This document shows, piece by piece, positions 9,109-58,730 of a stretch of DNA of 64,000 nt. The translations under genes and the position numbers were made by a program. Position 1 is the first letter of the stretch. Each line of letters begins with the position of its first letter. Origin of the DNA: a virus (lineage: Duplodnaviria; Caudoviricetes); IMG/VR virus record IMGVR_UViG_3300027747_002427, one strand, 5' to 3'. The notes beneath the pieces are model-generated. The model ran no database searches and was not told the origin of the DNA. It saw only the letters and a list, made by a program, of their open reading frames with translations.

Positions 9109-9483
9109 ATGAACGAGAAAGATATCAATTTAATTGCCGAAGCTTACAGTAAAGTAGGCATAGTACAAGAATCATTTAACTATATGGATCTTGCTAAGGA
9201 AGTTCTCCATGCAGCTGAAGAGCACATCAATGATGGTGTTAGACATACATTTGCCGAGATTTGGTCTGGAAGCAAAGAATATGATATGGTTTTAGATCGT
9301 TATGTAGAAGACTTAAGGGAATTGGTTGATGTGGCAGAAAACCTTAAGAAAGGTGATATGGAAAAGGTTAAGAGACTTTATAAAGGTTTGGATATGACTG
9401 TTAAAGATCATCTTCCAAAGTCTTTTATTTCATTAGCTGATAATCTTTCATTGTCAGAAGTTCCAGAAAAATCCGAGGAGTAA
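9109..9483 (+). CDS. Hypothetical protein with DxxLIxEAY N-terminal motif
   Basis: MNEKDINLIAEAYSKV. Confidence 0.55.
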   Translation: MNEKDINLIAEAYSKVGIVQESFNYMDLAKEVLHAAEEHINDGVRHTFAEIWSGSKEYDMVLDRYVEDLRELVDVAENLKKGDMEKVKRLYKGLDMTVKDHLPKSFISLADNLSLSEVPEKSEE

Positions 9484-9767
9484 TCATGGCTCGCATAGTC
9501 CATTGGGGTGGCCAGGATTATAAAGTCTTAGATGGTCAAAAGTCTTATGGACCATTTGATAAACAAGAAGCTCAAGACTTTCTAAAAGAATTAGAAGATC
9601 TAAATGCTCCAGCCTCTTACGAAGATTTTAAAAAACTATTTGGACCCGTTCAAGCTCAACTTAGAAAAGATGTAGCAGAAAGAGAAGCTGCTAGAGCTGA
9701 AGAAGAAAAGAAAAGAAAAGCAGCTGGCGAAGCTGAATTAAAAAGTCTTTCATTCAAGAGACATTTC

Positions 9768-10886
9768 TCAGACTCTCAACGTCTTTCCTAAGCTAGTAAC
9801 TGTAGCTTTGTTTCCGTGAACCACAATAGGTTCTACACCAATTACATCATCTGTGTAATTGATAATTGAGAATCCGTTTTGCCAATTACAATTAGGAGCA
9901 TAGTCTGGATCCATCTTACAAGCACAAGCATTCTCATAGTTAGTATTATAAATGTCTCCGCGAAGACCAGCTGCTGGAATTCTTTGACAAGTCATTCCCA
10001 TTCTATGAGTATGATTAGTCATAGTAGAAGTCATCTTCTTCTCCCACTCTCCACGAGCAGACATAGCTCCAATCTTTCTAACAACTGTTCCGTGATAGAC
10101 AATAAAGTTTGTTGGAAGAATAACCTCATCAACTAACTTGATTCTACTCCAGGACTCCTTAGGAAAGAAAAGATTCTGATATGAAAGTTCATCTTTAGCA
10201 ATCTCTGCTAACTCTCCAAGCTGAGCACTAAGATATCTCCAAAGCCTTCCTTCAACGGAATTACCGGAATGATTAGCATTAGTCTCTAAAATCTCTGAAC
10301 CAAATGGTTCTGTAACATCATGAAGAAGCTTTAAGAATTTATGATATGCTTCTCTCTCCTTAATAAGACTTTGCTTGTAACGAGCGTCCTTTGGATACTT
10401 GCTTACTGCAAACATATCCATAGTATCTCCATTGAGAATAACCTTCTCTGGTTTAGTCTCTGCAACGGTTTGTAAGAAAAGGTCTAAAGTATTCCAATCC
10501 TCACAACCAAAATGTGTATCTCCAATAACACAAGCAATCTTATTAGCTTCTTGTCTTACCTTTGTTCTCTCTGGTGCTGGATAAACAATAGGTGCTAACT
10601 CTTGAATAAACTGTTTAGCATCCCTATCTTGAGCAGATTGTGATAGAATAGAAGCAATGGGATCAGCTGGAACATAAACATCTTCACCATCTAATTCTCC
10701 ATCCTCTGTATAGTATTCATCTACAATAGTAGTAACTGTATGATGCTTACGACCTGATACCCAATCAAATATAGTTGATCTAGGTACTCCTAGAAGATTA
10801 GATATTTCAGTCTTAGACTTACCTTGTTGAAAGAGTTCCTGTGCTAAGGATTTCTTCTGATCGCGTGTTAGAATGTTATTAGACAT
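9768..10886 (-). CDS. Calcineurin-like metallophosphoesterase with N-terminal HTH
   Basis: GDTH, NGDTMD, NANH, HGT and HTHR motifs; KTEISNLLGVPRSTIFDW HTH. Confidence 0.75.
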   Translation of the reverse strand: MSNNILTRDQKKSLAQELFQQGKSKTEISNLLGVPRSTIFDWVSGRKHHTVTTIVDEYYTEDGELDGEDVYVPADPIASILSQSAQDRDAKQFIQELAPIVYPAPERTKVRQEANKIACVIGDTHFGCEDWNTLDLFLQTVAETKPEKVILNGDTMDMFAVSKYPKDARYKQSLIKEREAYHKFLKLLHDVTEPFGSEILETNANHSGNSVEGRLWRYLSAQLGELAEIAKDELSYQNLFFPKESWSRIKLVDEVILPTNFIVYHGTVVRKIGAMSARGEWEKKMTSTMTNHTHRMGMTCQRIPAAGLRGDIYNTNYENACACKMDPDYAPNCNWQNGFSIINYTDDVIGVEPIVVHGNKATVTSLGKTLRV

Positions 10887-10983
10887 TGTTTCTATATTAA
10901 TAAAGCTTTACGATATATCAAGTATTAATTTTAAAGGATTCTTTTGGGTTGATCTTTCCCTAATTATTACATATTATATATAC

Positions 10984-11610
10984 ATGAAGAATAACAACAA
11001 CCTAACAGAAGCATACACCGCAGTTTATATGGAGAACATCACCACCGAGACTGGTGCAGAGCACACCCAGGAACTCATCACCCAGCTCCTTGATTATCTT
11101 AGCAAGGGGCAGACTATTGCATCCTTCTTGTACAAGTCCAAAGGGCTTGGTGAAACCGCTCTTTACAATGTTCATTTGAATGTTGACTATAAGAAGGCTA
11201 AGGAAGAAGACTATAAGAAGCTCGAGGCTTATGAGCCAGAGACAGAATTGGAAGGTCAAGCCAAGGAGCACCTCCTTAATCTCTATCGTAATCCTAAGGC
11301 TCGCACACAGAAGCAAATGGATACCTACACCAATTATGGCAAAGGTATCAGGGTTAATAATAACAACGGCTTGTTGCATCTCTTTGGTTATAAGATCAAC
11401 AAGAGCACAGTTGCCGATGGTGTCGAGAAGAAAGACACTCGTAAGGAGCTTACAAAGGCTTGCGACGACCTCAAAGCCAAGCTTAACTTCCTTCACCAGA
11501 AGATTCGTGATTTTATTCTTGATCCTCAACACATTGCAGGTCTCAAAGCTAAGGGTAATGTGATTGAATTCCAACAGGATGACAATGGTGATAGCACCGG
11601 AGGAGTGTAA
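10984..11610 (+). CDS. Hypothetical protein (start reassigned to MKNNNNLTEAY)
   Basis: TTGATC(10949)-17-TATTAT-6 nt-ATG(10984); GC-richer codon usage than its neighbours. Confidence 0.6.
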   Translation: MKNNNNLTEAYTAVYMENITTETGAEHTQELITQLLDYLSKGQTIASFLYKSKGLGETALYNVHLNVDYKKAKEEDYKKLEAYEPETELEGQAKEHLLNLYRNPKARTQKQMDTYTNYGKGIRVNNNNGLLHLFGYKINKSTVADGVEKKDTRKELTKACDDLKAKLNFLHQKIRDFILDPQHIAGLKAKGNVIEFQQDDNGDSTGGV

Positions 11611-11618
11611 ATAGTTTA

Positions 11619-12590
11619 GTGAATTTTAAAGAATTCTTTAAAGAAGCTAAATACCATCCTTCTAGAGCAGCAGGTCGCATATACAAAGCACCTAAAACCT
11701 GGAAGGATGTATTCTTTATCGAAAAGGATACAGCAAAGGAACCAGTTGAGAATTATAAGTTTACAGAAAATAAAACAGATAATACTATAGCTCGACTCTT
11801 TGGTTCTTTAAAGAAAGGTAATGTTCATGCCGCTAGTGTCTATGATTCACTTGTAAACACGACATCAGATTTAAAGTTATTCCTTTTCCATTTATCTAAA
11901 TCAAGAAGAGACTCTGATAAAAAATCAGAAGATCCAGTTACATTAAGATTAAGAAAAGAATATTACGATTCGGTTGTAGATAATACAGCTGCTATAGTTA
12001 ATAATTTATTAATTGAAAAACCTGATTCAACAGTTTTGTATATTCATTCAAGATCTCCTTTTAACGAAGCAGTTAAAGATAAAGTAGGAGCAACCGATAA
12101 ACAATTAGTACCTAAGAATACTTTAGGTGATCTAGTAGAAAGATATAGAAAAGATCCTTATTGTATTGATAAATTAGTTTCTGCTAAGAACACATCAGTT
12201 GCTAGAAAAGATATAGCCAAAGATGCTTTGATAAAACTTTTAAATATATCTAAAGACGATGAAGAATTAAAAAATGAACCCCTTTCTGTAGAAAAAATAT
12301 CAAAACTTATTATAGATAAAGATCTTATAGATTTAAATAAAGTAGCTTCTGGTGATATACAATTTGCTTCAAGATCAAATTATCTTCAAGCAGCATTTCT
12401 TCCGGAAGGTTTCTTTAATTTTGAAAATGTAAAATTAGAAAACAAATCTGTAATAGTTATAGACGATAATATTAATACCAAAGCAACCTATGATGAGATC
12501 AATCAAAAGATCAAAGAGAAGTATGGATACAAAAATATTGATTGGGTCGTTGGAGTTATTCCTAACGATGTATTACAAACTATAAAATAA
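11619..12590 (+). CDS. PRTase-like protein with capsid-targeting-like N-terminus
   Basis: VIVIDDNINTKAT resembles the PRPP-binding loop; starts MNFKEFFKEA (GTG start). Confidence 0.5.
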   Translation: MNFKEFFKEAKYHPSRAAGRIYKAPKTWKDVFFIEKDTAKEPVENYKFTENKTDNTIARLFGSLKKGNVHAASVYDSLVNTTSDLKLFLFHLSKSRRDSDKKSEDPVTLRLRKEYYDSVVDNTAAIVNNLLIEKPDSTVLYIHSRSPFNEAVKDKVGATDKQLVPKNTLGDLVERYRKDPYCIDKLVSAKNTSVARKDIAKDALIKLLNISKDDEELKNEPLSVEKISKLIIDKDLIDLNKVASGDIQFASRSNYLQAAFLPEGFFNFENVKLENKSVIVIDDNINTKATYDEINQKIKEKYGYKNIDWVVGVIPNDVLQTIK

Positions 12591-12591
12591 T

Positions 12592-13191
12592 ATGCAATTT
12601 AAAGAATTTATTAAAGAAGAAAGGAATGTAACGCCCGACATTAGAGATCACAATCTAGTTATTCTTTATGGTATGCCGGCTTCAGGTAAGTCAGCGGTTC
12701 TTAAATATGGTTTGATTAATCTTCCTAACATTCAAGTATTAACATCAGACAAGTGGACAGAGCTATTGGCTCGCAAAGAAAAGAAAGACTTGTCCAATCC
12801 GGAGAACACTAATGAATTGCATCATAGAGTATCTCCAAAGTTTGATAAACATCGTTACAATGCTACACACGTACGCAATAGGTCTAATATAGTTATAGAA
12901 AAGATTGGTAGTAGCTATCAAAAGCTTTTGGAACTTATAAATCAATCACAAGCAGATGGCTTTAGAATTGTATTAGTTTGGGTTAAAGTAGATTTAAAAA
13001 CATCTATAGAATCCAATCAAAGAAGAAATAGAAATGTTCCGGAAGAAAGAATTATGAATTCATATAAAAATACAGAATTACATTTCAATCAATTAGTTGA
13101 TAAAGTTGAAGAAGCATGGATCATAGATAATGACACGCATCCAAATTTCAATGACTTTAGAACTTCAAAATATATTAAAAGAATAAAATGA
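12592..13191 (+). CDS. P-loop kinase (AAA_33/zeta-toxin-like) with capsid-targeting-like N-terminus
   Basis: GMPASGKS Walker A; SIESNQRRNRNVPEE lid; starts MQFKEFIKEE. Confidence 0.7.
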   Translation: MQFKEFIKEERNVTPDIRDHNLVILYGMPASGKSAVLKYGLINLPNIQVLTSDKWTELLARKEKKDLSNPENTNELHHRVSPKFDKHRYNATHVRNRSNIVIEKIGSSYQKLLELINQSQADGFRIVLVWVKVDLKTSIESNQRRNRNVPEERIMNSYKNTELHFNQLVDKVEEAWIIDNDTHPNFNDFRTSKYIKRIK

Positions 13192-14966: not shown

Positions 14967-15440
14967 ATGAAAGACCATGATCAAATTATATTAGAACAAG
15001 CTTATACTAATAAGATTGTTAAGCCTCGTAAGATTCTCTTAGAAGACTTAGCTGACAATGAGTATGAAGCAGAAGTAGAATTAGATTTATTCCATTCCAG
15101 AGAGCCTAATGGATATTCTTTAGATGATTATGGCATTAAGGTTAGAGTTCGTTATACCTTAGAGCTTGATATAAGAAGCTATGGTATCAAAGATGTTTCT
15201 GTATATGGTTTAAAGATAGATCCTTTTACAGTAGATTGGTATGAGGGAGAAGAAGGTGAGAAGCCAGCTCCTATTGAGGTCAATGTAGAAGATGCTAGTG
15301 GCATTAAGATAGATACCGGAAGTGATCGTAGTATTACATTACCATTCTATCCGGTGACCTTAGAGCTTCATTTGGATGATAATTTCAAAGTAATACCTGA
15401 GCAGTCTTCTTTAATATTCAATCAGAGTAACGGGTTGTAA
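14967..15440 (+). CDS. Hypothetical protein with DQIILEQAY N-terminal motif
   Basis: TAAGTA 6 nt upstream of the ATG. Confidence 0.55.
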   Translation: MKDHDQIILEQAYTNKIVKPRKILLEDLADNEYEAEVELDLFHSREPNGYSLDDYGIKVRVRYTLELDIRSYGIKDVSVYGLKIDPFTVDWYEGEEGEKPAPIEVNVEDASGIKIDTGSDRSITLPFYPVTLELHLDDNFKVIPEQSSLIFNQSNGL

Positions 15441-15629: not shown

Positions 15630-15812
15630 ATGGAATCTCCAAGCCCAGAAGTTCTTGTTGAGCTTCTATTAAAGAACAAGAAGTCACCAGAATACATTAT
15701 AGAGATATTAGTTAATATACTCAAGCAACAGATGATGTATGGAGGTTCTGTGAGTGATAAGCTAGACTATGAAATTCATAGAGCTAAGCAAGACTCTTAT
15801 TTCCTAACGTAG
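15630..15812 (+). CDS. Small protein of the local KSP[DE]YII paralog family
   Basis: Aligns by eye with ORF 19352 and an internal segment of ORF 32795. Confidence 0.5.
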   Translation: MESPSPEVLVELLLKNKKSPEYIIEILVNILKQQMMYGGSVSDKLDYEIHRAKQDSYFLT

Positions 15813-16429
15813 ATATAGTAACGATCTTGGTTTGTATCTATAGTACCGAAGTCCCAGGAGAGCTGTTTAGAGAAATAAGGAGACATACGATCATAGAGTC
15901 TGACTCTTGAGGGTTCTGCCTTAGAAGCTGAGAGTACAACTACGTTAATGTCGGGAATGTTTATACGTTTGAGATCCCCTTTGTCTTCCAGTGGCTTTAA
16001 AGTATCAAGACTTAGAGACTTTGGCCAGAGAACATCTTTCTTAGTTCTCTTAAATAGGATAGCCTTTTTGTAAACAAAGTCCTTGAGAGAAGACATAACC
16101 GTGCCGAATACTTGAGGAGATGACCCGGAACCCGTTAAGGCATGAGGATCCTTTTCGTCGTCTTCATAACCTTCTTCATTAAAGGATAGTATATAGGGAG
16201 CATTATTCTCTAAGGCTTTCTTGATATTAGGAGATAGCGTATCAACTTCCGTAGTAGAAAAGGTATCATAGATATAGGTTCTCAATAGATTAATAGCATA
16301 GTTAACATTAGATGGAGAAGTAAAGGAGCTTCTGTACATCTCATCACTTAAGAGTTCTATCCAACAAGAAGATGATGGACTATCGAATAGCTCTAATAAT
16401 AGAGAATGGACTTGTTTATCAAATTTCAT
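15797..16429 (-). CDS. Hypothetical protein with MKFD...LLLE N-terminal motif
   Basis: 210-aa ORF. Confidence 0.55.
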   Translation of the reverse strand: MKFDKQVHSLLLELFDSPSSSCWIELLSDEMYRSSFTSPSNVNYAINLLRTYIYDTFSTTEVDTLSPNIKKALENNAPYILSFNEEGYEDDEKDPHALTGSGSSPQVFGTVMSSLKDFVYKKAILFKRTKKDVLWPKSLSLDTLKPLEDKGDLKRINIPDINVVVLSASKAEPSRVRLYDRMSPYFSKQLSWDFGTIDTNQDRYYIYVRK

Positions 16430-16683
16430 TTCTTTTTCCAGGAGATACGTTTAGATCCCTTCTTGAGCTTCTTTCTATTATTACACATGGCCATAGTAGG
16501 TCGACAAGCTGGATAACCTTTACGCTTCTCTCCTGCTTGACGACCACAGGACTTACCAGTCTTGCAATCCACCCAGCCCTTGTGACCATCGGCTCCTCGG
16601 CGAGAGAACCAGCCATGAAGACCCTGTTCTTTTTCTTTCTCAAAGCCTTCTAAGATAGTAGTAACTAAAGAATCAAATCTCAT
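16426..16683 (-). CDS. Small basic Cys-containing protein (start reassigned to MRFDSLVTTILE)
   Basis: WVDCKTGKSCGR...YPACRP motif; ATG overlaps the stop of the upstream ORF. Confidence 0.6.
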   Translation of the reverse strand: MRFDSLVTTILEGFEKEKEQGLHGWFSRRGADGHKGWVDCKTGKSCGRQAGEKRKGYPACRPTMAMCNNRKKLKKGSKRISWKKK

Positions 16684-16841
16684 TTCTTTTTCCAGATCTC
16701 TCCTCGGCGACATCTTACAACGGCACCCGACTTATAGGCCGAGGTCTTCTTTCCATAGACTGCATCGGCTTTTCTAAGACAACGATCTCGTTTGACCTTC
16801 TTTTCTTCTAGGATATTAGCTACTAAGGTATCAAACTTCAT
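16680..16841 (-). CDS. 53-aa basic protein missing from the ORF track
   Basis: MKFDTLVANILEEKKVKRDRCLRKADAVYGKKTSAYKSGAVVRCRRGEIWKKK; TAAATA upstream. Confidence 0.6.
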   Translation of the reverse strand: MKFDTLVANILEEKKVKRDRCLRKADAVYGKKTSAYKSGAVVRCRRGEIWKKK

Positions 16842-16909
16842 ATAGTATTATTTATAGTATTGTCGGGAGTTTTCTCCAATAATATAATATAGTAGAATAA
16901 ATAATAATA

Positions 16910-17359
16910 ATGAAATTCGATAGACTATTTAAACAATATAGTGAAGGTTATAGAAGACCCTCATATCTTCCTCATTATACTAAGACCTGGCATGATTATA
17001 GAGATCAACAAAACGATCGCAATCATGGACTCGAAAGAGAAGAAGAACCATTAATACCTGCTGGGTATTATAAAAGTAACCCGGAAACCGATCTTAAAAC
17101 CCAAGTATTAAGAAACAAACGTACCGGAAAATATATGATGGCCAGAGAAGATAAAACCAAAATTGCTACCTTTAAGTCTATTAGTCACGCAAAGAATGTC
17201 TTGAGTAAATTTAAATTCGGTGCCAATGATATGGAGATAGTCGCCGCGGATAGTTTATCAGAACCCGACAAGGAAAAAATATATCAAGCACCAAGACAAC
17301 CAGATAAATTTAAAACTATCTGGGGAGTACCTAATGTCCCAGGCGGAGATATAGATTAA
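16910..17359 (+). CDS. Hypothetical protein with MKFD N-terminal motif
   Basis: 149-aa ORF preceded by TAAATA. Confidence 0.55.
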   Translation: MKFDRLFKQYSEGYRRPSYLPHYTKTWHDYRDQQNDRNHGLEREEEPLIPAGYYKSNPETDLKTQVLRNKRTGKYMMAREDKTKIATFKSISHAKNVLSKFKFGANDMEIVAADSLSEPDKEKIYQAPRQPDKFKTIWGVPNVPGGDID

Positions 17360-18379: not shown

Positions 18380-18437
18380 GCCTATAATTTCTCAGAATCT
18401 TCTTTTCTTTTCCTACAATCCCTATTATAATAAGGGC

Positions 18438-19537: not shown

Positions 19538-19538
19538 T

Positions 19539-28624: not shown

Positions 28625-28993
28625 TATGAAAAATAAAGATCAAATCATGTTAGAGTCTCTGTATACTAATAGTATGAAAAATAAGAACACCAAGCCCGCC
28701 CTCAAAGCTCTCTTCCCTGGCCAGGAGGTCTCTGTAATGGGCTTCAGGGAGTATGGTAAAGTTATCGAGCGTCAAAAGGAGAAGGTTATGGGCAATACTG
28801 TCTATAGGGTCAAGTGTGAGGGTAAGGAGTTTAATGTATCTCGCCGTCAACTTGGCGTTCGAGTTAACAATATCTTTAAGTTCGGTCCTTACAATACAAC
28901 CGATCTTCCTGCTTGAAGTTCTAATCAAATTCCCTTATACTAATAGTATGAAAAATAAAGATCAAATCATGTTAGAGTCTCTGTATACTAATA
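28625..28993 (+). repeat. 47-bp exact direct repeat (28625-28671 and 28947-28993)
   Basis: TATGAAAAATAAAGATCAAATCATGTTAGAGTCTCTGTATACTAATA occurs twice, 322 bp apart. Confidence 0.95.
28674..28916 (+). CDS. Cassette gene (MKNK), SH3/KOW-like, between the 47-bp repeats
   Basis: FPGQEVSV...GKVI...VYRVKC pattern; stop in the next -35 box. Confidence 0.7.
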   Translation: MKNKNTKPALKALFPGQEVSVMGFREYGKVIERQKEKVMGNTVYRVKCEGKEFNVSRRQLGVRVNNIFKFGPYNTTDLPA

Positions 28994-29358
28994 AGGTATT
29001 GAAAGAGGACGAAGAGAATGGAGATAATGTATTAAAGAAGTATACCTATGAGATTCTTTATAGAACTGATTACAAATATGATCCTAAGACAAAGAAGGCT
29101 ATAAGTTGGTCTTATGGTTCTCATTCTAGAGGTTGGCCGGATCTCCGACATGAATTTGCTTATTCTGATGATGATTTTTGGTCTAAGATAGATGATTCTG
29201 GATATAGTGGTGGTAAGGATGAATTAAGAAAATCCATAGTTATTAAAAATGTTGAACCTGCTGATTTGAGAGAGGTTGAGCATGAGAAGAGAAAAAATAA
29301 GGCTATATCAGATTATTATAGTAATGCGAGTAAGACGGGTTCTTATTCGGGTGATTAG
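28948..29358 (+). CDS. Hypothetical protein with DQIMLESLY N-terminal motif
   Basis: Start reassigned to the promoter-linked ATG. Confidence 0.65.
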   Translation: MKNKDQIMLESLYTNKVLKEDEENGDNVLKKYTYEILYRTDYKYDPKTKKAISWSYGSHSRGWPDLRHEFAYSDDDFWSKIDDSGYSGGKDELRKSIVIKNVEPADLREVEHEKRKNKAISDYYSNASKTGSYSGD

Positions 29359-30830: not shown

Positions 30831-31415
30831 ATGAAAAACAGAGACACAATAATGTTAGAAGAAGCCTATAATTTAATCTTAGAAGCTAAGAAGAAAAAAC
30901 TTACTCCTAAGGAAAAGAAGATTGCAGGTGCAGCAGAGCCTTATGACAAGATCACAAGAGCAGACATTATTACTTTAGCTAAGAACAAGAACAAGAAGAC
31001 AAATAATGAGTCTACTGGACTTGAACAAGCTTATAATCAGCAAGACGAAGTTGCTGCAAAGAAGATCGCTGAGAAATTAAAAGGAACACCTAATTTAAAC
31101 ATTGCAACAATTAAGATGTACGTTGCAAAGTATCTACCCATGATTGGCAAGGGAGAAAGTGATGTAGATCACTTAACAGCATTAGTTCATGATAATCTTT
31201 CTGAATTAGGCTTAGTAGAAGCCTCTGCTGGAATCGAAGATCAAGAAGAGTATCATTGTGATTATGCCGCAGACGGATGCGACTGTGATGGTTGTGAAGA
31301 GTGCAAAGCTAACCAAAAGAAAGAAGTTCAGGAAAATGAGATGAAGTGTGAATACGCTAAGAAGGGTTGTGATTGTGATGGTTGTGAAGAGTGCAAAGCT
31401 AACCAAAAATCCTAA
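30831..31415 (+). CDS. Protein with DTIMLEEAY N-terminus and duplicated Cys-rich C-terminal motif
   Basis: Two CxYxxxGCDCDGCEECKANQK units; 35-bp exact DNA repeat at 31284 and 31374. Confidence 0.65.
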   Translation: MKNRDTIMLEEAYNLILEAKKKKLTPKEKKIAGAAEPYDKITRADIITLAKNKNKKTNNESTGLEQAYNQQDEVAAKKIAEKLKGTPNLNIATIKMYVAKYLPMIGKGESDVDHLTALVHDNLSELGLVEASAGIEDQEEYHCDYAADGCDCDGCEECKANQKKEVQENEMKCEYAKKGCDCDGCEECKANQKS

Positions 31416-32334: not shown

Positions 32335-32766
32335 ATGTTATCATTTAAGGAGTATTTTGAAGAGGCGGAATTAACTCAAAGAACGGGTCATAAAGGGTTT
32401 ACTGGAAGAGTGTTTGTTTACTTTAATATCAATCTTTCGGACAAATTAAAGACCCCCTATTTTTCTGTTAAGAATATGAGTACTGGAAGAGTCATTGGTC
32501 ATGAGACTTCCTTTATGGTAAGAGATGCAACCTTTAAAGTTAGTGCAGCTGGTAATGAAAGAGTAAATCGAGAAGGTAAAAAGAATGTTCATGCTGGGGT
32601 AGTGGGTTATTTGGTTCATGAAGAACCGCGTGCTCTTGACACCCCAGTTACCTATAATCCTTACAAATATAAAACTTTCGTTAAAGTGGCGGATGAAACT
32701 CCAGTACATTCAGCGGATTTAGTTTCTTTTGCAAATAGAAGGCTTACAGCTGAAAATGTAAAATAG
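32335..32766 (+). CDS. Conserved phage protein with capsid-targeting-like N-terminus
   Basis: MLSFKEYFEEA; VFVYFN...FKVSAAGNERVNREGKKNVHA. Confidence 0.65.
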   Translation: MLSFKEYFEEAELTQRTGHKGFTGRVFVYFNINLSDKLKTPYFSVKNMSTGRVIGHETSFMVRDATFKVSAAGNERVNREGKKNVHAGVVGYLVHEEPRALDTPVTYNPYKYKTFVKVADETPVHSADLVSFANRRLTAENVK

Positions 32767-32794: not shown

Positions 32795-33622
32795 ATGAAT
32801 AAAGATCAAATTAACTTACAAGAAGTTTATAGTAGAATCTACCTTAAGGAAGATGAAAATTTTAGTGATCAAATAAATCCTTCAGCTCAAGAGAGAGCAG
32901 AATCTGTTTATGGCGAAGAGATTCCACCTGTAGAAGGTGAGAGTGAAGAACTAGGAGAAGATTCTAATAATTCTGTCAAAATGCCCAACAGAGTAGCTCA
33001 TATGGTCAAGGTAATGAAGAGTAAGGGAGAATCTTCAGACTACGTTACGGGTTATCTTATGAGTATGATTCAGAATACTATTGATGTTCCTAATATGCCT
33101 AGCCTTCAAGATCAGATTGATTGGGCAATAAATCATTACGAAAAAAAGACTCTTCCTGAGGAAGATGAAACCCAAGAAAAGATGAACGAGGATTCTAAAT
33201 CAGGTTCTTACACTCTTTATTATAAAGATTCTGAAGCAAAGAAGACAAGTGCTTGGTATACATCTGAGACTTTAGAAGATTTAGTCAATCAAGTCAACAA
33301 AGGTAATAAAGGAATGGATTATGATTTGCCAGTTGTTGATGAAGACCGAGTATTTAAAAACAAGGAAGAGCTTTTAGATTTTTGTTCTCATAGTGACTTC
33401 TTTATCAAAGGACCGGATGGTAATTTAGTATCAGGTTATCCAGTTAAGCCAGGAGATTGGGAAAATGATATTAACGAGAAGAAGGAAAAATTTACAATTA
33501 ATACACCAACTCAAGGTCAATTGATTTCTAAGACTAGAGCACCAGTTCACAAGCCTACAATGCAAATCAAACCCAAGAAGGGAATATATAATCGCCAACA
33601 ATTCAAAAAGGATTATGAGTAA
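32795..33622 (+). CDS. Modular acidic protein with DQINLQEVY N-terminus
   Basis: Several xxE-type junctions; internal segment of the KSPDY paralog family. Confidence 0.55.
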   Translation: MNKDQINLQEVYSRIYLKEDENFSDQINPSAQERAESVYGEEIPPVEGESEELGEDSNNSVKMPNRVAHMVKVMKSKGESSDYVTGYLMSMIQNTIDVPNMPSLQDQIDWAINHYEKKTLPEEDETQEKMNEDSKSGSYTLYYKDSEAKKTSAWYTSETLEDLVNQVNKGNKGMDYDLPVVDEDRVFKNKEELLDFCSHSDFFIKGPDGNLVSGYPVKPGDWENDINEKKEKFTINTPTQGQLISKTRAPVHKPTMQIKPKKGIYNRQQFKKDYE

Positions 33623-35235
33623 ATTCCAAAATCTCTATGAGTCACTTCTCTTAGAGATGCCACATATTTCTTTTGAAAAGAATGGCAAACATTTTGATTT
33701 TGATTTAGAATTAGAAAAACATCAGAAGGACTGGTATGGATTAGTGCGTTTAATGCATAATATTCTAGGGTCCAATTCAGTTAAAGACAAGTATGGTAAT
33801 GTTTTAAGTCTACAAACTTCAGATGAAAAGGAAGCATTTGTAGAAGAGTTAAGAAACAATCCTATGTTTACTACTTTCATTAAAAGGTTTTATAATAAAG
33901 ATTTTAATGATCTTTTAGATTTAAGTCATTATACTCCTAAAATAAACGTAGCACATAAGAACAATACAACACCACAAGGGACAACCAATTATGGCAAAGG
34001 TGTTTCTGCCAATTTAAAATCTTCTATGGGAGATCAATTACCAACGGGCAATAGTGCCGCTATGTAAGTAAATATAACAATGCGTACCTTTGACACAATT
34101 ATTTTAGGAGAAGCTTATTCTAAAGTTCGTACTATAGAAGAAGCTAAGTTTCGTGATATAGCTGCCGCAGCGGCTTTAGGTCTTTCTGGTCTTACAGGTG
34201 CTCATGCTACTACAGCCGACGATCAAGCAGATACTCATGGACTTAATCCTCCGATTGTACAACAAGCAACAAAGGAAGAGCCAACTGAAACCAATTATCA
34301 TAAGGCTAAAGTAGCTTATGATAAGGCAGTCAAAGAAAAAAAGGCAGATATAGAGACTTTAAAAAATATATCCTTAGATACAGACTATGCAAAAAGATAT
34401 GCAGGTCATTTAGTTTTAATGGGCCATGATGTTCCTGATATCATCAGAGATGCAGCAAAGGGTTCAGCAGAAGAAACTGAAAAGGCTTTACAAAGCCAAG
34501 ATTTGAATTAATTTTTAATTCGAGGTTTACGTTTTTTGGGACGAGTTTTTTCTTGATAATCTCTATTTAAATCTTGTTGTTCTTGTAACACAGAACCATC
34601 GATAAAGGCTCTCCAAGCAATTACGCCTTGTAATATAACATTTAAAAATATTATAGTAGCTCTTACTTCATTTATACCGTGAAACCCACCGTCTGCGGAA
34701 TCTGTGTGATGAGAAAGATCGGATATTAAAGATGTTATCATAGCAACACTAGCATAGAGACAAAGTTTGACTTTAACGCTACTAATAGAAACCACCGATC
34801 TAACTGGTTCTTTTCTTTTTATTGCCATATCAATACTTAGACTTTAATTTGGGACCAATTACGCGTAAATAATAGCAAATAAGTTATGACACTTAAAGAT
34901 ATTCAAGATTTAATAGATTCAACAAACCTAGCGTTGCTAGAAGATTTTCGCATAGTACATCATCGCGATCCGAAAGATAAAGAGCTTTTATTACATTTAA
35001 AACACGTCCTTAAAGAAGGATATCAAGAAGACGTATTAGCTGAAGTTTTATCAGATGATGTAAATTGTCCACAAGACTATTACAAGCTCTTATTATTAGT
35101 TGCGGCTACCCAATAAATTTTATTTCTCAATACTATTCAGAAATAAAGCCGTTAAAATAAGGCCTCCAAATACAAGTTTAAAGAAGAAATAAAGCTCTGG
35201 ACTCATACTAATACTTAGGGGGTAAAAGGAGAGTA

Positions 35236-40763: not shown

Positions 40764-40997
40764 TTATTTTTCCGGTTTTAATTGCCCACCACGTCTTAAA
40801 GCTCCTCTATAATTAGAAGCTTGAAGTTTAGCTCTTTTAGAATTATGCTTTTTAACAACCCAATTACTTAATTTTTGTAATTTAGTAGAAGTTGATAACC
40901 CTTTTAAAGATACTCTAAATTTTTGCCAATCATCAGATGATACAGCTTTATCTATTTGCTGATGTGTTGCTTCATAAAAGAAGGTTTTGAAATTCAT
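40764..40997 (-). CDS. Small basic protein with capsid-targeting-like N-terminus
   Basis: MNFKTFFYEA; TAAATA upstream. Confidence 0.6.
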   Translation of the reverse strand: MNFKTFFYEATHQQIDKAVSSDDWQKFRVSLKGLSTSTKLQKLSNWVVKKHNSKRAKLQASNYRGALRRGGQLKPEK

Positions 40998-50674: not shown

Positions 50675-50746
50675 GTCCTCATAGTGTAGCGGTTAGCACC
50701 AGCCCCTTTCACGGGCTTAGCAGGGGTTCAAATCCCCTTGAGGATG
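50675..50746 (+). tRNA. tRNA-Glu(UUC)
   Basis: Cloverleaf with a CTTTCAC loop. Confidence 0.85.
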
Positions 50747-50762
50747 TTAAATAATTTTATAT

Positions 50763-50852
50763 GGAAGCTTACTCAAGCGGTTTACGAGAGCGGTTTACTA
50801 AACCGCCGAGCCTTCATCGGCTCCGTGGGTTCGAATCCCACAGCTTCCTCCA
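50763..50852 (+). tRNA. tRNA-Ser with ACU anticodon
   Basis: GCGGT-TTACTAA-ACCGC; long variable arm GAGCC/GGCTC; CCA. Confidence 0.85.
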
Positions 50853-50855
50853 TAT

Positions 50856-50933
50856 GCGTCAATGCCTGAGAAGCCCAAAGGAAAGGTCTGCAAAACCTTA
50901 AAGCCGTAGGTGCAAATCCTACTTGACGCTCCA
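50856..50933 (+). tRNA. tRNA-Cys(GCA), divergent D and T loops
   Basis: AAGGT-CTGCAAA-ACCTT; U73; CCA; T loop TGCAAAT. Confidence 0.75.
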
Positions 50934-50940
50934 TTTTAAC

Positions 50941-51029
50941 GGAAGTGTGTCTGAGTGGTTTAAAGAGTCAGTCTTGAAAACTGAAGAGGTCTAAAGCCTC
51001 CGTGGGTTCGAATCCCACCGCTTCCTCCA
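50941..51029 (+). tRNA. tRNA-Ser(UGA)
   Basis: Class II cloverleaf with a CTTGAAA loop and CCA. Confidence 0.9.
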
Positions 51030-51052
51030 TATAAAAGGGGGTAAGTATTTAT

Positions 51053-51406
51053 ATGTTTACAAGAATTAAAGATACTCTCCAAGGTAAAGCTCCTATAACA
51101 GCTTCTCGCTCTCCTAAATGGAATGGTGTGAGAGATGCACATTTAAAACAACAACCTAATTGTGCAGTTTGCGAAGGTAATGAAAATCTTAATGTTCATC
51201 ATATTAAACCCTTTCATTTACACCCAGATTTAGAATTAGAACCTACTAATCTTATTACTCTTTGTGAATGTGAGAAGCATGGTGTTAATTGTCATTTACT
51301 CATTGGGCATTTAGGTAATTTTAGAAATGTTAATCCACATGTGTTAGAAGATGTTCCACTTTGGAATGCTAGACTAAAAGAAAAAAACAATAATCCAGAC
51401 TTATAG
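51053..51406 (+). CDS. HNH endonuclease
   Basis: CAVC...NVHHIKP...NLITLC...CHLLIGH. Confidence 0.85.
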   Translation: MFTRIKDTLQGKAPITASRSPKWNGVRDAHLKQQPNCAVCEGNENLNVHHIKPFHLHPDLELEPTNLITLCECEKHGVNCHLLIGHLGNFRNVNPHVLEDVPLWNARLKEKNNNPDL

Positions 51407-51454
51407 TTATTGCCTTACTGATGAAGATGTATTAATATATACATCATAAGCATC

Positions 51455-51529
51455 CGGGATGTAGCTCAGCTTGGCTAGAGCGCTTGGTTTGGGACCAAGA
51501 TGTCGTAGGTTCGAATCCTATCATCCCGA
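51455..51529 (+). tRNA. tRNA-Pro(UGG)
   Basis: CGGGATG/CATCCCG acceptor stem; TTTGGGA loop. Confidence 0.9.
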
Positions 51530-51536
51530 AATTTAA

Positions 51537-51611
51537 TGTCGAGTAGCTCAGTGGTAGAGCGGAGAGCTGTTAACTCTTTGGTCGTAGGTTCAAATCCTAC
51601 CTCGACAGCCA
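51537..51611 (+). tRNA. tRNA-Asn(GUU)
   Basis: Cloverleaf with a CTGTTAA loop and CCA. Confidence 0.9.
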
Positions 51612-53635: not shown

Positions 53636-53706
53636 TTCCTGGTGGTGTAATGGTAGCACAAGAGTTTTTGGCACTCTTTGTCGAGGTTCGAGTCCTTGCC
53701 GGGAAG
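53636..53706 (+). tRNA. tRNA-Gln(UUG)
   Basis: Cloverleaf with a TTTTGGC loop. Confidence 0.85.
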
Positions 53707-54114
53707 CTTTTTAGTTGATATTCCTTTATAAAACATTTAATATATAAACAATGAGCGAAGAAAATACAAAGACAGTAAGACTAATGGAATCCTTTACCAC
53801 ATATGAGTGCCATGGAGACATTAAACTTAATCTTGATATTTTCCCGGAATTGAAAGATAAGACAAATCAAGAAATTCAAACTTGGTTAAATGAAAATTCT
53901 GGTAATCTTTATATTGATTGTTATAGCCAAGAACTTCGCAAAGATCAATATTATATATATTCCCAAGAAGAATTAGATGATATGTTGGTTAATGGAGAAG
54001 ATCCTGAAATAGATGATAGTGTAATAGAACTTTCAGAATATTGGTCAAATACGGAAGTGATTTGGGATAAAATCAAGTGTGAAGAAAAGACTTTGCATGT
54101 ACAATAATTTAAAT

Positions 54115-54199
54115 GGGTAGATCGCATAGCGGCAATTGCCGGAGACTGTAAATCTCCTCTCCTCGGAGTTCGAAGGTTCGAGTCCTTCTCTGCCCACCA
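54115..54199 (+). tRNA. tRNA-Tyr(GUA)
   Basis: Class II cloverleaf with a CTGTAAA loop and CCA. Confidence 0.9.
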
Positions 54200-54868
54200 T
54201 TTTATGAAAATTAAAACTAAACTTACAAAAATTTGTACAGGTGTTTATCTTTGCGAAATTGATAATGCTTATGATTTGGCAATGACTTTTTGTAGGGTTC
54301 AAGAATTTTATGAATCTTCTTTTGAGCAAATAAGAGGCAAAAATTTTAATATGATGGAATTTCAAAGAATTTATTCTTTGAAAAATGGAGGAACTTTTAC
54401 ATATCCTGAAGACTGGTCTGGTTTTAATATTCCTAGTGGTATTTTAGATAAATTTTATAAAGGTTCTTGGGTTCAGACAGATTGGAATATGTATGATTCA
54501 GTATTAAAAAAAGTGATCAATCAAATAAAAGAAAACAAACCTTATTATTTGATAGGGACACAGAAAAAGGATCAAGATACCATCAATCATGAATTATGTC
54601 ATGCGTTTTATAAATTAGATAAAAAATATAAAAAAAGTGTAACCAAACTTATTAATAGTATTCCAAGAAGACTTTTAGATAAAATGAAAAATGTTCTTCG
54701 TAAAACCGGATATTGCGATAATGTATTAAGAGATGAAATACAAGCATATCTTTCCTGTGACCAAGCCTTTTTAGGCGATGCAATAAGATCCGATTGGGAG
54801 AAAATAGAAAAGTGGGGTATTGTTTTTGAAAAACATTTTAATAAACATATTACCCTAAATATAAAGAA

Positions 54869-56008
54869 ATGAACTTTAAAGATTTCTATAACAACGAAGA
54901 AGGACACATGGTTCTTGTTAAAGACGTTGAGATTAGTGAGGCGTTATCATATCACCTGAAACATAAATTAACCTTAAGTGAAAATGCTTTTAGAATATAT
55001 TCAGATCAATACTTTGCTTTAATTCAAGAAGCTAGAGATCTTTATAATCAAGATGCCTTGGCTTTAAATGACGAAGATGTAGAATTAGTTGAATCTTCTT
55101 TAGGTGAAAAAGCAATTTACAACGGAAGAGAAGTTTATTTAGAAGCCCCTCTTTATCTAAGTGAGGATATTATATTAGAAGCAACATTGGAGCCTAATTC
55201 TATTGATACAACAATTTATGTTGATATGGATGGGGTTTTAGCTGATTTAAGAAAAGCAGTTTGTCAATATGTTGGTAAAGATCATGTTGAAGACGAAGAT
55301 TATGACAAATATTTCTTAGATCATAAAGACAATATAAAAGATTGTTTTAGAAATCTTACAAAATTCGATTCAACAGATTATTTAATTAAGCTTGTTTCGG
55401 ATGTTGCAGGGTCTTATAAAATTTGTTCATCGCCTTTAAGAAGTGATAGAGAAAATTCATCCATCGGAAAAAGTGAATGGTTAGAATCCAATTTAGAAAT
55501 TAAACCTTTAGAGAAAATTTTTACAGGCCGCAAAGAGTCCTATGCTACTACAAACGGCAAACCTAATATTTTAATAGATGATAAAGAAAAAAATATTAGA
55601 AGGTGGGAAGATAAAGGCGGAATAGGAATTCTTTATTCGGCAGAACATGATAGTCTAGACACAATTGTTCAAGGTTTAGAAAGAGCTAAAAAAATATTAA
55701 TGGGTGAAAGTACAATTACAGAAGCTATTAAAAATGGTAAAAAAGTAAAACTCGGCCATCCATTTAGAACCCCAGGAGGTCCTAAGAAATTTGCCGTTTA
55801 TGTTAAGACACCCAAAGGTTCTATCAAGAAAGTAACCTTTGGAGATCCTAATATGAAGGTTCGTAATAATAATAAAGCTAGAGCTAAATCATTTAGAGCA
55901 AGACATAAATGTTCTCAAAAGAAAGATAGAACAACGGCTGGTTATTGGAGCTGTAATGTTTCTCGATATCGTAAAGCTTTAGGTTTAAAATCTTCAAGAG
56001 TCTGGTAA
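54869..56008 (+). CDS. Three-module protein: N-terminal domain, HAD 5'(3')-deoxyribonucleotidase-like domain, basic C-terminal domain
   Basis: IYVDMDGVLAD and ILIDD HAD motifs; KVKLGHPFRTPGGPKKFAVYVK...TFGDP C-terminal module. Confidence 0.75.
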   Translation: MNFKDFYNNEEGHMVLVKDVEISEALSYHLKHKLTLSENAFRIYSDQYFALIQEARDLYNQDALALNDEDVELVESSLGEKAIYNGREVYLEAPLYLSEDIILEATLEPNSIDTTIYVDMDGVLADLRKAVCQYVGKDHVEDEDYDKYFLDHKDNIKDCFRNLTKFDSTDYLIKLVSDVAGSYKICSSPLRSDRENSSIGKSEWLESNLEIKPLEKIFTGRKESYATTNGKPNILIDDKEKNIRRWEDKGGIGILYSAEHDSLDTIVQGLERAKKILMGESTITEAIKNGKKVKLGHPFRTPGGPKKFAVYVKTPKGSIKKVTFGDPNMKVRNNNKARAKSFRARHKCSQKKDRTTAGYWSCNVSRYRKALGLKSSRVW

Positions 56009-56307
56009 TGAGCCTTCCGTTTCAGCAAGAAAGGATATCTGATAAAGAAGTTATCAGATCATTTTCAGAATTTATAGATGAAGAAGATTTAAAATGGCAT
56101 TTTGATAAAGAAGACAGAATAGTTGAAGCTTTAGAACCTACGGATTGGTTAATTCAATTTGATAACCAATTACCCCAATTAATAGAAGGCAAAATAGAAA
56201 TCCCTGCTGGAATATATCACAGAGTAATAAAAGGAAAAAAAGATTTTAAAATTAAAATTAAAATGTCTTGATCTTTCTTATCAGGTGTATTAATATAAAC
56301 ATGATAT

Positions 56308-56383
56308 GCACGAGTAGCTCAGTGGTAGTAGCGTTTCGCTTACACCGAAAATGTCGGGGGTTCGAATCCCTCCTCGTGTACCA
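56308..56383 (+). tRNA. tRNA-Val(UAC)
   Basis: Cloverleaf with a CTTACAC loop and CCA. Confidence 0.9.
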
Positions 56384-56384
56384 T

Positions 56385-56457
<73 letters not shown>

Positions 56458-57027
56458 CTCCACTATTATGAATTCTTTAATAACAAATTTTCTAATTTTA
56501 GTAGGGGTTTGTTATATTATAGCTTTTATAGCGTCTATAATTTATAGACTAAGACACCCAAGCAAAAAGAACTTGATAGAAGAAGGTTGTCGTTTGGTTA
56601 TCTATAAAATAGCTACAAAAAGAAAAGGAAAATATTTTACTACCTTTAATACTTTAAAACATGATTTAAGATTAAATGTAATTGGAATAAACAAAGAAAA
56701 TGCTTGCGAAATAACAAGGTGCGTTTTAGAAAAATTGATGGAAAATAAAATAATTGAATTAGATACACATTTGGAAATTGATGTTTATCATGAAATTTAA
56801 AATATTAATATTTTTTTTATACATCACATCAATATTTGCCAAAGATACTAACTCTAATAATGGCTCAATTGATTTAAACAAATTTTTATCAGATATGCAA
56901 GATCAATATTATCTTAAAATTATAGAAAAGAAAAAAATTGATATAATCTTGACAGGTCAAACCTTTTTCGATTATAATATTAATCGTAATTATACCTATA
57001 GTTGTTTTAAAATAAAATTTTAATAAA

Positions 57028-57549
57028 ATGCATAAAGATTTAGAAAATATATTATTCTCAAAAATTTCCCTTTCAGCAAAAATTAAATCTCTTGGAAGAA
57101 CTATTAGTAAAGATTACAAAGAAGAGCCTTTAACTATTATCAGTCTTATGGCTGGTAGTATTTTATTTACAGCTGATTTAATAAGGGAAATCAATATTCC
57201 AATTCAATTATACACTATAACAGTCTCAAGTTATAATGGAGAAAAAATAAGTTCAGGGACGCTCAATATTCAAGGGCATATACCAGATTGTAAAGATAAA
57301 AACGTTTTAATAGTAGATGATATTTTAGATTCCGGTTTAACTCTTTATACGTTAAAAAACCGATTAAATGAATTGAATCCCAAATCAGTTAAAACTTGTG
57401 TTTTATTAAATAAGAAAATTGAAAGACCATATACAATAGATCCTGATTATTATGGATTTGAAATAGGAGAAGAATTTGTTGTAGGTTATGGATTAGATTA
57501 TCAGGGACTATATAGAAATATCCCTTATATTGGTACTCTTAAGAATTAA
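57028..57549 (+). CDS. hpt: Hypoxanthine phosphoribosyltransferase
   Basis: GSILFTADL, SSY, VLIVDDILDSGLTL, FVVGYGLDY..YRNIPYIG. Confidence 0.92.
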   Translation: MHKDLENILFSKISLSAKIKSLGRTISKDYKEEPLTIISLMAGSILFTADLIREINIPIQLYTITVSSYNGEKISSGTLNIQGHIPDCKDKNVLIVDDILDSGLTLYTLKNRLNELNPKSVKTCVLLNKKIERPYTIDPDYYGFEIGEEFVVGYGLDYQGLYRNIPYIGTLKN

Positions 57550-57550
57550 T

Positions 57551-58141
57551 ATGAATTGTGGATATTTAAAAAGAGAAACGGTTTTAGTTTTAAATCGTAA
57601 TTGGCAAGCTATACACGTTAAATCACCGGCTGAAGCATTGGCTGCAATGTTCAGTGATGATGCAACCGGCCTAGATGTTCAAGGAACAGATAATATGATT
57701 CCTTATAGATGGGATCAATGGATTAATTTGCCTTATGATGAAAATGCTTCTTACATTAAAACAGTAAGAGGAGATATAAAAATACCAAAGATTATTATCC
57801 TAGCAGAATTTGATAAAGTTCCACAAAAAAGACCAAAGTTTTCTTCTAAAGCTATTTGGAGAAGAGATGAAAGTATTTGCCAATATACAGGTCAAAAATT
57901 AACTCCTAATGAGGGTAATATTGATCATGTTATTCCAAGATCAAAAGGCGGCAAGACTAGTTGGACTAACTGTGTTTTAGTTCATAAAGAAGTAAATGCT
58001 AGGAAAGCGGATAAAATGCCACATGAAGCAGGTTTAAAATTAATCAGACAACCACAAATTCCTAAAGCATTACCTACTACATTTTACATTAAAAATAAAC
58101 ATAAAATCCAGGAATGGGAAATTTTCTTAAAATATGAATAG
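57551..58141 (+). CDS. HNH endonuclease (McrA-like)
   Basis: VLVLN, RRDESICQYTG, IDHVIPRSKGG..SWTNCV. Confidence 0.85.
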   Translation: MNCGYLKRETVLVLNRNWQAIHVKSPAEALAAMFSDDATGLDVQGTDNMIPYRWDQWINLPYDENASYIKTVRGDIKIPKIIILAEFDKVPQKRPKFSSKAIWRRDESICQYTGQKLTPNEGNIDHVIPRSKGGKTSWTNCVLVHKEVNARKADKMPHEAGLKLIRQPQIPKALPTTFYIKNKHKIQEWEIFLKYE

Positions 58142-58538
58142 AATATCTTGGGAAGAATATGCTTTAAAAATAGCAGAAGTAGCTTCATTAAGAAGTGAGG
58201 ATCCTCGTACTAAAGTAGGTTGCTGTTTACTTCGCACAGATAATACCGTAGCTAGTTTAGGTTATAATGGAGCTCCAGCTGGAGTGGAAATAGAATGGAA
58301 TAACCGTGAAGAAAAACACAAAAGGGTTATTCACGCAGAGATTAATGCTCTTAGAATGGTTAAACCAGGAGAGTGTTATCTAGCAGCAGTAACTCATTCT
58401 TGTTGCAATGATTGTTTAAAATCTTTAGCAGCCTACGGAATCAAAAAAATAATTTATAAAACTCATTACGATACAGGCACCTCATATTCATTTACAGAGA
58501 TAGCCAAAGATTTCGGAATTGAAGTAGTAAATTTATGA
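58134..58538 (+). CDS. dCMP deaminase
   Basis: RSEDP..KVGC, GYNG, IHAEINAL, CCNDC zinc motif. Confidence 0.9.
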   Translation: MNRISWEEYALKIAEVASLRSEDPRTKVGCCLLRTDNTVASLGYNGAPAGVEIEWNNREEKHKRVIHAEINALRMVKPGECYLAAVTHSCCNDCLKSLAAYGIKKIIYKTHYDTGTSYSFTEIAKDFGIEVVNL

Positions 58539-58730
58539 TTTACGGTGGCTTTGTTTCCACCATTTACACCAACCATTTGGTTTAATATCACCAGCTACAG
58601 CTGAACACTTATTAGGCGAACGCCACATAGTACATTCATCACAGCGTTGACCCTTTACAGTGTGATCAACGTAACCTGCTTCTGATTTAGGATGTTTGGC
58701 TTTTTCTTCTATAAATGTTTTGAAATTCAT
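58533..58730 (-). CDS. HiPIP-like [4Fe-4S] protein with capsid-targeting-like N-terminus
   Basis: GY..H..KGQRCDEC..W....KC..VAGDIKPNGWC..W; starts MNFKTFIEE. Confidence 0.75.
   Translation of the reverse strand: MNFKTFIEEKAKHPKSEAGYVDHTVKGQRCDECTMWRSPNKCSAVAGDIKPNGWCKWWKQSHRKS

Follow-up and report, generated by a model that had tools for sequence, protein, structure and literature searches.

The DNA analysed here is a stretch of 64,000 nucleotides (nt) from the IMG/VR virus record IMGVR_UViG_3300027747_002427 (Duplodnaviria; Caudoviricetes), referred to below as the window. It has a G+C content of approximately 33%, carries 16 tRNA genes and is made up of short genes lying mostly on one strand. 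Seventeen of its predicted proteins begin with a short shared leader of 9-21 amino acids (aa), here called a tag, and the tags fall into three motif classes: class a (MNFKEF..E), class b (KDQIxLEEAY..hxE, with h for a hydrophobic residue) and class c (MKFDxL..LLE). All six class b members of the window have the form D/N-x-I-x-L-x(1-2)-E-x-Y. The tagged genes are listed below by position; a slash marks the putative junction behind a hydrophobic-x-Glu site, and handles such as G001 and L139 designate relatives in which an ortholog was found.

9109..9483, + strand: class b, acidic, 124 aa; tag MNEKDINLIAE/AYSKVGIVQE/; TAAGTA 7 nt upstream; the G001 ortholog retains the tag.
11619..12590, + strand: class a, 323 aa; GTG start, VNFKEFFKE/A; TAAATA 5 nt upstream; the G001 ortholog begins MVNFREFFTE.
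12592..13191, + strand: class a, P-loop kinase (AAA_33/Zeta_toxin, domain from aa 22); MQFKEFIKE/E; directly downstream of 11619.
14967..15440, + strand: class b, acidic, 157 aa; MKDHDQIILE/QAY; TAAGTA 6 nt upstream.
15797..16429, - strand: class c, 210 aa; MKFDKQVHSLLLE/L; overlaps the upstream gene at ATGA; ortholog in L156.
16426..16683, - strand: class c, basic, 85 aa when counted from MRFD; MRFDSLVTTILE/G; overlaps the upstream gene at ATGA.
16680..16841, - strand: class c, small and basic, 53 aa; MKFDTLVANILE/E; TAAATA 7 nt upstream; leads an operon of three tagged genes (16680-16426-15797); the L139 ortholog has a class c tag.
16910..17359, + strand: class c-like, 149 aa, the weakest member; MKFDRLFKQYSE/G, with Tyr at P3 and no [I/L]LE; TAAATA 6 nt upstream.
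28948..29358, + strand: class b, 136 aa; MKNKDQIMLE/SLYTNKVLKE/; begins on a TATACTAATAGT-ATG cassette, a repeated element, instead of on TAA[AG]TA.
30831..31415, + strand: class b, 194 aa; MKNRDTIMLEEAYNLILE/A; TAAATA 6 nt upstream; tagged ortholog in G042/L062.
32335..32766, + strand: class a, Phage_L5_gp82 family, 143 aa; MLSFKEYFEE/A; TAAATA 6 nt upstream.
32795..33622, + strand: class b, acidic, 275 aa; MNKDQINLQE/VYSRIYLKE/; 29 nt after 32335.
33615..34067, + strand: class c, 150 aa; MSKFQNLYESLLLE/MPHISF; orthologs in G042 (adjoining gp23) and L154 with MKFD..LL[LM]E/MPH.
34080..34511, + strand: class b, 143 aa; MRTFDTIILGE/AYSKVRTIEE/A; TAAATA 5 nt upstream.
40764..40997, - strand: class a, small and basic, 77 aa, net charge +12; MNFKTFFYE/A; TAAATA 7 nt upstream; the G001 ortholog retains the tag.
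54869..56008, + strand: class a, composite protein of 379 aa; MNFKDFYNNEE, no canonical site; TAAATA 7 nt upstream.
58533..58730, - strand: class a, HiPIP-like Fe-S protein, 65 aa; MNFKTFIEE/K; TAAATA 5 nt upstream; in the close relative L013 this body bears a class c tag.

A sequence-only reading of the window had described these seventeen N-termini, and translation agreed with it for all of them. Two of its start calls were amended. The start at 28948 was found to be an internal ATG of a longer open reading frame (ORF), 28753, though one that falls on a promoter/start cassette of a repeated kind; MRFD begins at position 16683, where it forms an ATGA overlap with the upstream gene, and not at the first ATG, 16713. 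The same reading had likened the N-termini to those of T4, and a T4-related affiliation of the phage was borne out by a syntenic relative. The IMG/VR contig G001 (176.8 kb, 82% complete by CheckV) shares 70-82% nt identity with the window and is syntenic with it at 2.8-14.4 kb and 39.3-64 kb. It encodes a prohead protease of the Peptidase_S77 family (3.7e-30), a T4-type scaffold (T4_CASP) rich in [LIV]xE sites, including AIAE/A, and a gp23 with approximately 35% identity to cyanophage gp23, together with portal, sheath, tube, adaptor and fibre genes. The combination of a gp21-type protease (Peptidase_S77), a T4-type scaffold and gp23 was also found in G042, G017 and others. Because of the gene set of G001 and the distance of its gp23 from that of cyanophages, the window phage is placed, on the evidence of its relative, in a deep, uncultured T4-related lineage.

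Resemblance among gene starts could come from chance or composition, M-K/N-F-K... being cheap in codons at AT-rich starts, and in a genome of this G+C content many starts are indeed rich in K, N and F. When N-terminal residues were permuted among the 130 called genes of the automatic gene set, the expected numbers of matches to classes a, b and c were 0.035, 0.002 and 0.007, respectively, compared to 6, 3 and 3 found, and none of 5000 composition-preserving shuffles reached the observed counts. Among N-terminal 9-mers, 14 pairs scored at least 24 bits, compared to none for segments taken from residue 20 or 40. In IMG/VR, a class a query consisting of TAAATA-N4-8-ATG followed by MNFK[DE]F, in which only residues 1-6 were fixed, was matched by 39 stretches encoding 27 distinct proteins of 81-840 aa, whereas permutations of the same composition were matched by 3 (MNKF[DE]F) and 0 (MNF[DE]KF) stretches. 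The class b pattern was found in 61 stretches, in frame in 61/61, on 20 distinct bodies, and the class c pattern MKFDxLxxxLLE on 22 distinct bodies. The chance reading is effectively refuted by these findings and keeps next to no probability.

Nearly all of the tag-bearing contigs were, according to CheckV, pieces of genomes of approximately 200 kb or larger. The S77 protease was detected in 7/36 class a contigs and 4/26 class b contigs, most of the contigs scanned being small fragments; both large contigs that are at least 90% complete were among the positives. These findings show that the tags are specific to a clade of approximately 200-kb T4-like phages encoding gp21, gp22 and gp23.

The hexamer TAA[A/G]TA, which the sequence-only reading had noticed upstream of many tagged genes, was found 5-10 nt before the start in 11/17 of them. 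Five of the six tagged genes lacking a motif of their own lie directly downstream of another tagged gene within a motif-headed unit (11619-12592, 16680-16426-15797 and 32335-32795-33615); the sixth is 28948. TAA[AG]TA at 3-10 nt upstream is enriched at tagged genes both in the window (odds ratio 6.0, p = 0.002) and in G001 (odds ratio 6.7, p = 0.0008), and in G001 it is also found ahead of virion genes, namely those for tail tube, portal, tail fibre, sheath stabiliser and adaptor. The tagged genes thus appear tied to a late-type promoter, as far as timing can be judged from sequence. It was also observed that TAA[AG]TA stands before virion and tagged genes and a TATAAT-like element before replication genes, and that most genes start 5-10 nt past a promoter-like -10 element (for example at 9085-9111, 16842-16866 and 40998-41020, and throughout G001). 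The short start distance and the lack of a Shine-Dalgarno sequence imply leaderless or near-leaderless mRNAs.

This arrangement raises the question of whether the shared starts are a by-product at the nucleic acid level, with the peptide itself being functionless. The conserved stretch would then be either the start region of leaderless or short-leader late mRNAs, or part of cassettes of promoter and start that recombination has spread, in the manner of the PeSL cassettes, whose role in gene shuffling is documented for T4-type phages (PMC2839356, PMC4122927). The position of the starts 5-10 nt past a promoter-like element without Shine-Dalgarno sequence fits such an origin, and a neighbouring array of 19 cassettes is in fact conserved at the DNA level. 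This array occupies window positions 18426-28958 on the + strand and consists of 19 copies of the start cassette TATACTAA[TG]AGT-ATG-AAA-AAT-AA, compared to 0 expected by shuffling; all copies lie on the + strand in a stretch of 45-49% G+C and put MKNK on different small ORFs, and the class b gene 28948 begins on one of them. Unlike these MKNK cassettes, the tags vary in their codons synonymously (TTT/TTC, AAT/AAC, AAA/AAG, GAA/GAG), and conservation is therefore at the level of the peptide and not of the DNA. The near absence of same-composition class a permutations is likewise unexpected for a functionless peptide. Moreover, 20/32 genes behind TAA[AG]TA, virion genes among them, are untagged, and the tag is therefore not required by the start region.

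Residues further downstream are coupled to the tag in a way that cannot arise at the RNA level. In class a, [ILFVM]xE ending at residues 8-13 was found in 16/27 proteins compared to 11% of control windows (p = 2e-9). In class b, where EAY is conserved, a second [ILV]-x-E follows 8-10 residues past L-x-E-A-Y in 17/20 bodies, and the class b tag is therefore a module of approximately 19 residues. Together with the exchange of leader codons behind an unchanged promoter described next, these results make an origin at the nucleic acid level improbable.

Natural exchanges of tags were found on three bodies. The Phage_L5_gp82 body was compared in 820 homologs of 32335 and occurs with a class a tag, with a class b tag or untagged. 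Most of the homologs are 113-125 aa long and begin at the domain itself (MKVFVYFN...), and the tag is absent from homologs outside the clade. Close relatives of the window carry class a on this body (MLSFKEYFEE/AELTQRTGH) and others carry class b, such as MRNRDQILLEEAYGVICE/NELVARTGH; the hydrophobic-x-Glu of both classes, and that of a third, longer leader (..DILTE/AELAQKKGH), occupies a single column of the alignment, directly ahead of the linker that they have in common. The HiPIP-like body has a class a tag in the window (MNFKTFIEE/KAKHPKSEAGY) and a class c tag in the close relative L013 (MKFDSLINFLLE/EDKPKHPKSEAGY). At this locus the 40 nt upstream are identical at 38/40 positions and the DNA past the tag is approximately 90% identical over the aligned stretch, so that only the leader codons have been replaced. 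The third body, a ParB-like protein with a DGHHR motif, has a class b tag in L060 and one of class c in L133, and the Glu directly precedes the conserved MHGD start. In T4, fusions have shown that the leader functions on any passenger protein. Swaps between a and b, a and c, and b and c, together with the tagged and untagged homologs, point to leaders that are transferable, and the three classes are therefore regarded as exchangeable versions of one kind of module bounded by hydrophobic-x-Glu. This modularity is the strongest result.

The layout of the tags was compared with that of the T4 capsid-targeting sequence (CTS), MKTYQEFIAE, in which residues 4 and 7 serve targeting and residues 8 and 10 serve processing (PMC9026906). 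The gp21 protease cuts after L/I-x-E, and the propeptides of the T4 internal proteins are 10-19 residues long (PMC9026906). Class a tags have F3, F6, [F/I]7 and E9, with 32335 in the exact T4 register, and F/Y-x-x-F/Y-[FI]-x-E is present in 5/6 of them, which therefore repeat the T4 spacing. The layout of class c is F-x-x-[LV]...[IL]-L-E, and class b fits the bipartite T4 layout less literally, with D-x-I-x-L-x-E followed by the second hxE. Other T4 N-termini (NC_000866) resemble classes a and b, namely those of gp24 (MAKINELLRE), Alt (MELITELFDE), gp22 (MLKEQLIAE) and gp67 (MEGLIEAIKS); a separate gp24 homolog for N-terminus comparison was looked for and not found. In G001 gp23, CLEE/GS aligns with the T4 LTE/A cleavage region. 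An AlphaFold2 model of 32335 predicted the tag as a low-confidence helix over residues 4-14 (pLDDT 49-67) ahead of a confident body. Complex prediction of the G001 gp21 protease with a 79-aa class a protein gave a median score of 0.02, with one run at 0.36, and bears on binding neither way.

Tagged genes were also found close to head genes in the relatives. In the T4-like contig L011 the order is portal, an MNFKEF-tagged gene, further genes, gp21, scaffold and gp23, which places the tagged gene at roughly the position of T4 gp67/gp68. In G001, tagged genes flank the portal gene (102857 and 104146) and follow gp23 (119315 and 121861), and in G042 (195 kb, 92% complete) two tagged genes lie just past gp23. 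An 87-aa Lys-rich protein without a Pfam family is encoded between gp21 and scaffold gp22 in G001 (115486-115749; L046:15486-15749). Its N-terminus, MSIRSIISKFVAQICE/K, is class c-like (..SKFVAQICE/K), and it is a candidate internal or core protein of the lineage.

The explanation that we lean towards, with modest confidence, is that the three motifs are a local, expanded version of the T4 capsid-targeting and propeptide system, and that the approximately 17 tagged proteins are probably loaded into the capsid in the manner of the T4 internal proteins. By analogy with T4, the tags would be short, probably helical leaders on otherwise unrelated late proteins. Their front part, with an aromatic/hydrophobic pair spaced i/i+3 (F3 and F6 in MNFKEF), would bind the prohead scaffolding core during head assembly, and their back part, the hydrophobic-x-Glu at the junction of tag and body, would be cut by the gp21-type protease (Peptidase_S77). 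The cut would free the mature protein inside the capsid, from which it would exit with the DNA at infection. Core binding, cleavage, packaging and injection are all inferred from T4 in this scheme.

A shared N-terminal address or handle with a role away from the capsid would account for the modularity and the selection at the peptide level equally well. Such a handle might be recognised by one partner, of the phage or of the host, that all these proteins share (a chaperone, a membrane or a late assembly factory), or act as a signal for degradation or turnover or as an activation peptide that works in the cytoplasm under the control of a protease. In class b, the A-Y-x-x-h past the first LxE resembles a binding helix, and some of the enzymes among the cargo would be useful in the cytoplasm. 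What a non-capsid role leaves unexplained is the hydrophobic-x-Glu at the body junction of every class, the CTS-like spacing of the targeting and processing positions, the clustering of tagged genes by portal, protease and capsid genes, and the restriction of the tags to phages with a gp21-type protease. We therefore consider it unlikely, though it carries appreciably more weight than an origin in the nucleic acid or in composition.

Several observations weigh against capsid targeting. A strict L/I at P3 is present in only 12/17 tags, with F/Y in 4, and a canonical site is missing from the tag of 54869; there are also class a proteins in IMG/VR without the Glu site, a NUDIX enzyme among them. 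Because A-Y-x-x-h is conserved beyond the first LxE of class b, a place in a binding helix is more likely for that site than cleavage. The amphipathicity of the tags was not in significant excess over that of other N-termini (p = 0.08). The promoter of 28948 is that of the cassette and looks early. The gp21-type protease of the window phage itself is predicted from its relatives. No match to the class a and b patterns was found in the cultured Kyanoviridae P-SSM2, Syn9, S-PM2, HTVC008M and Melnitz, and for two tagged proteins encoded on other T4-like contigs, tblastn gave no homolog among cultured phages. Finally, metabolic cargo such as the HiPIP-like Fe-S protein, the kinase and the nucleotidase is unusual among packaged proteins, and the cargo share would be approximately 13% of the window genes, far above that of T4.

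As regards the bodies behind the tags, Pfam named four of them in the window, AAA_33/Zeta_toxin kinase, Phage_L5_gp82, NT5C and HiPIP, with the domain beginning after the tag in each case. Pfam and PHROG searches gave no family for the other tagged window proteins, nor for most tagged proteins of G001 and the IMG/VR contigs. When the bodies were compared with one another from residue 19 onward, no similarity was significant (best E 0.008, database of 17 sequences). The kinase, nucleotidase, Fe-S protein and small basic proteins of the earlier cargo list are upheld, with Pfam matches for the first three (P-loop kinase, NT5C and HiPIP-like), but its PRTase-like protein is not, since 11619 has no Pfam or PHROG match and 32335 belongs to Phage_L5_gp82. 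A search for related loci with 11619 found no relatives; twenty stretches fitted the peptide pattern without being homologs. For the kinase 12592, the homolog search recovered nothing beyond nine close orthologs, and because all nine are tagged it is uninformative on how the tag was gained. A division into basic cargo for class a and acidic cargo for class b is true of the window and fails across IMG/VR (p = 0.25).

The composite protein 54869 consists of a helical N-region, an NT5C/HAD domain (aa 116-260) and a basic C-domain. A conserved hxE junction precedes the NT5C domain (IILE/A; LFNE/G and ILTE/G in relatives) and a second one, [IF]TE/A, precedes the highly conserved basic C-domain. The latter domain also occurs within a small separate protein of Pelagibacter phage HTVC008M (gp131, with PLEE/A ahead), and roseophage records match it. 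The product of 54869 may be a protease-cut polyprotein.

In the relatives, the putative IMG/VR cargo also includes a NUDIX enzyme and the ParB-like protein, a ParB/sulfiredoxin-like sequence with a DGHHRLQKA motif (L060:11024-11443 and L133:1566-1961). The GmrSD restriction enzymes, against which T4 Ip1-3 act, contain ParB-like N-domains, and this would make the ParB-like protein an interesting candidate cargo. Across the clade of approximately 200-kb T4-related phages, the tags might form a three-class, exchangeable capsid-addressing code, in which any of the leaders, closed by the head-protease site, recruits head cargo, and the DNA is delivered together with approximately a tenth of all proteins of the phage, some of them enzymes (kinase, nucleotidase, NUDIX, ParB-like nuclease and Fe-S protein). 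This wider proposal is tentative, and we rate it at slightly short of an even chance.

Both ends of the G001 contig map to the window, at approximately 14.4 kb and 39.3 kb, and the 25-kb stretch between them is therefore a hyperplastic region that is absent from G001 or was unassembled there. It contains 11/17 of the tagged genes, the MKNK array and five tRNA genes. The 16 tRNA genes of the window form three groups (22629-24047, 50433-51611 and 53636-56458) and include three for A/U-rich codons, Ile-tat, Leu-taa and Arg-tct. In L011, the portal gene (Portal_T4, L011:27-2711) is split by an intein with an HNH endonuclease domain, and the head module holds an M14 carboxypeptidase gene on the opposite strand.

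Among known systems, the T4 CTS is found on IPI, IPII and IPIII, and gp21 removes it as it does the propeptides of Alt, gp24 and gp22. The tags share with it a short N-terminal leader on unrelated proteins, an aromatic/hydrophobic pair followed by hydrophobic-x-Glu at the same spacing, a lineage with Peptidase_S77, T4-type scaffold and gp23, an apparently late-type promoter and small basic cargo, with Alt as the T4 precedent for an enzyme. They differ in consensus (MNFKEF.., KDQILLEEAY..hxE and MKFDxL..LLE compared to MKTYQEFIAE), in the presence of three classes in one genome that are swapped on the same body, in number (approximately 17 tagged genes in 64 kb compared to four in T4), in the frequent F or Y at P3 and in putative cargo extending to kinase, nucleotidase, HiPIP-like, NUDIX and ParB-like proteins, all known here from sequence alone. 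PeSL cassettes are resembled by the separate MKNK array at 18.4-29 kb; the tags, in contrast, vary synonymously, and at the HiPIP locus the promoter was kept while the leader was replaced.

The internal proteins (Ips) of T-even phages share only their leader, and at least 10 Ip families have been recognised by this signal sequence (PMC9026906, PMC3012670, PMC12373910); T4 Ip1-3 inhibit the GmrSD type IV restriction enzymes (PMC12373910, PMC9026906). Like these polymorphic Ips, the proteins described here are fast-changing and mostly ORFan putative cargo known only by a leader and concentrated in a hyperplastic region (here 11/17). Ips, however, are confined to Tequatrovirus, have one leader type and are small, whereas the clade studied here is uncultured, with its divergent gp23, and its cargo is larger and more varied. 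In giant phages of the SPN3US/phiKZ group, head-packaged ejection proteins are processed by the prohead protease (PMC5694885, PMC7411985, PMC10052503), and in the T4-related jumbo phage Atu_ph07, 131 virion proteins are reported, 78% of them of unknown function (PMC6102473). The parallel lies in many non-structural head proteins, propeptides cut by a prohead protease and delivery with the DNA, and such cases make dozens of packaged proteins per virion plausible. The difference is that no short shared N-terminal leader appears in the abstracts and passages covered, the full texts not having been searched for one.

In a full-text literature search MNFKEF was absent and MNFKDF was present only in two plant papers on unrelated subjects, and a search for 'CTS-like' with 'phage' returned only the Black review. 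The CTS principle is thus already known, and the literature describes the system only for T-even phages. What the window contributes is the coexistence of three leader classes, the natural exchange of these leaders where the body is the same, and a Glu junction whose position is conserved.

The injected proteins of T4 are a first line of counter-defence, and Alt reprograms RNA polymerase. Virion proteomics is required to detect such proteins, and for that reason they have been identified in very few phages. If the leaders described here are indeed CTS-like, the injected cargo of a large uncultured aquatic group of T4-related phages could be listed from sequence, and this cargo would be far broader than that of T4, with many ORFans in addition to enzymes of nucleotide metabolism and Fe-S proteins. 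The leaders would, in addition, be candidates for tagging foreign proteins that are to be loaded into the capsids of non-coliphages, and their swapping would show a route by which an ordinary gene becomes packaged cargo.

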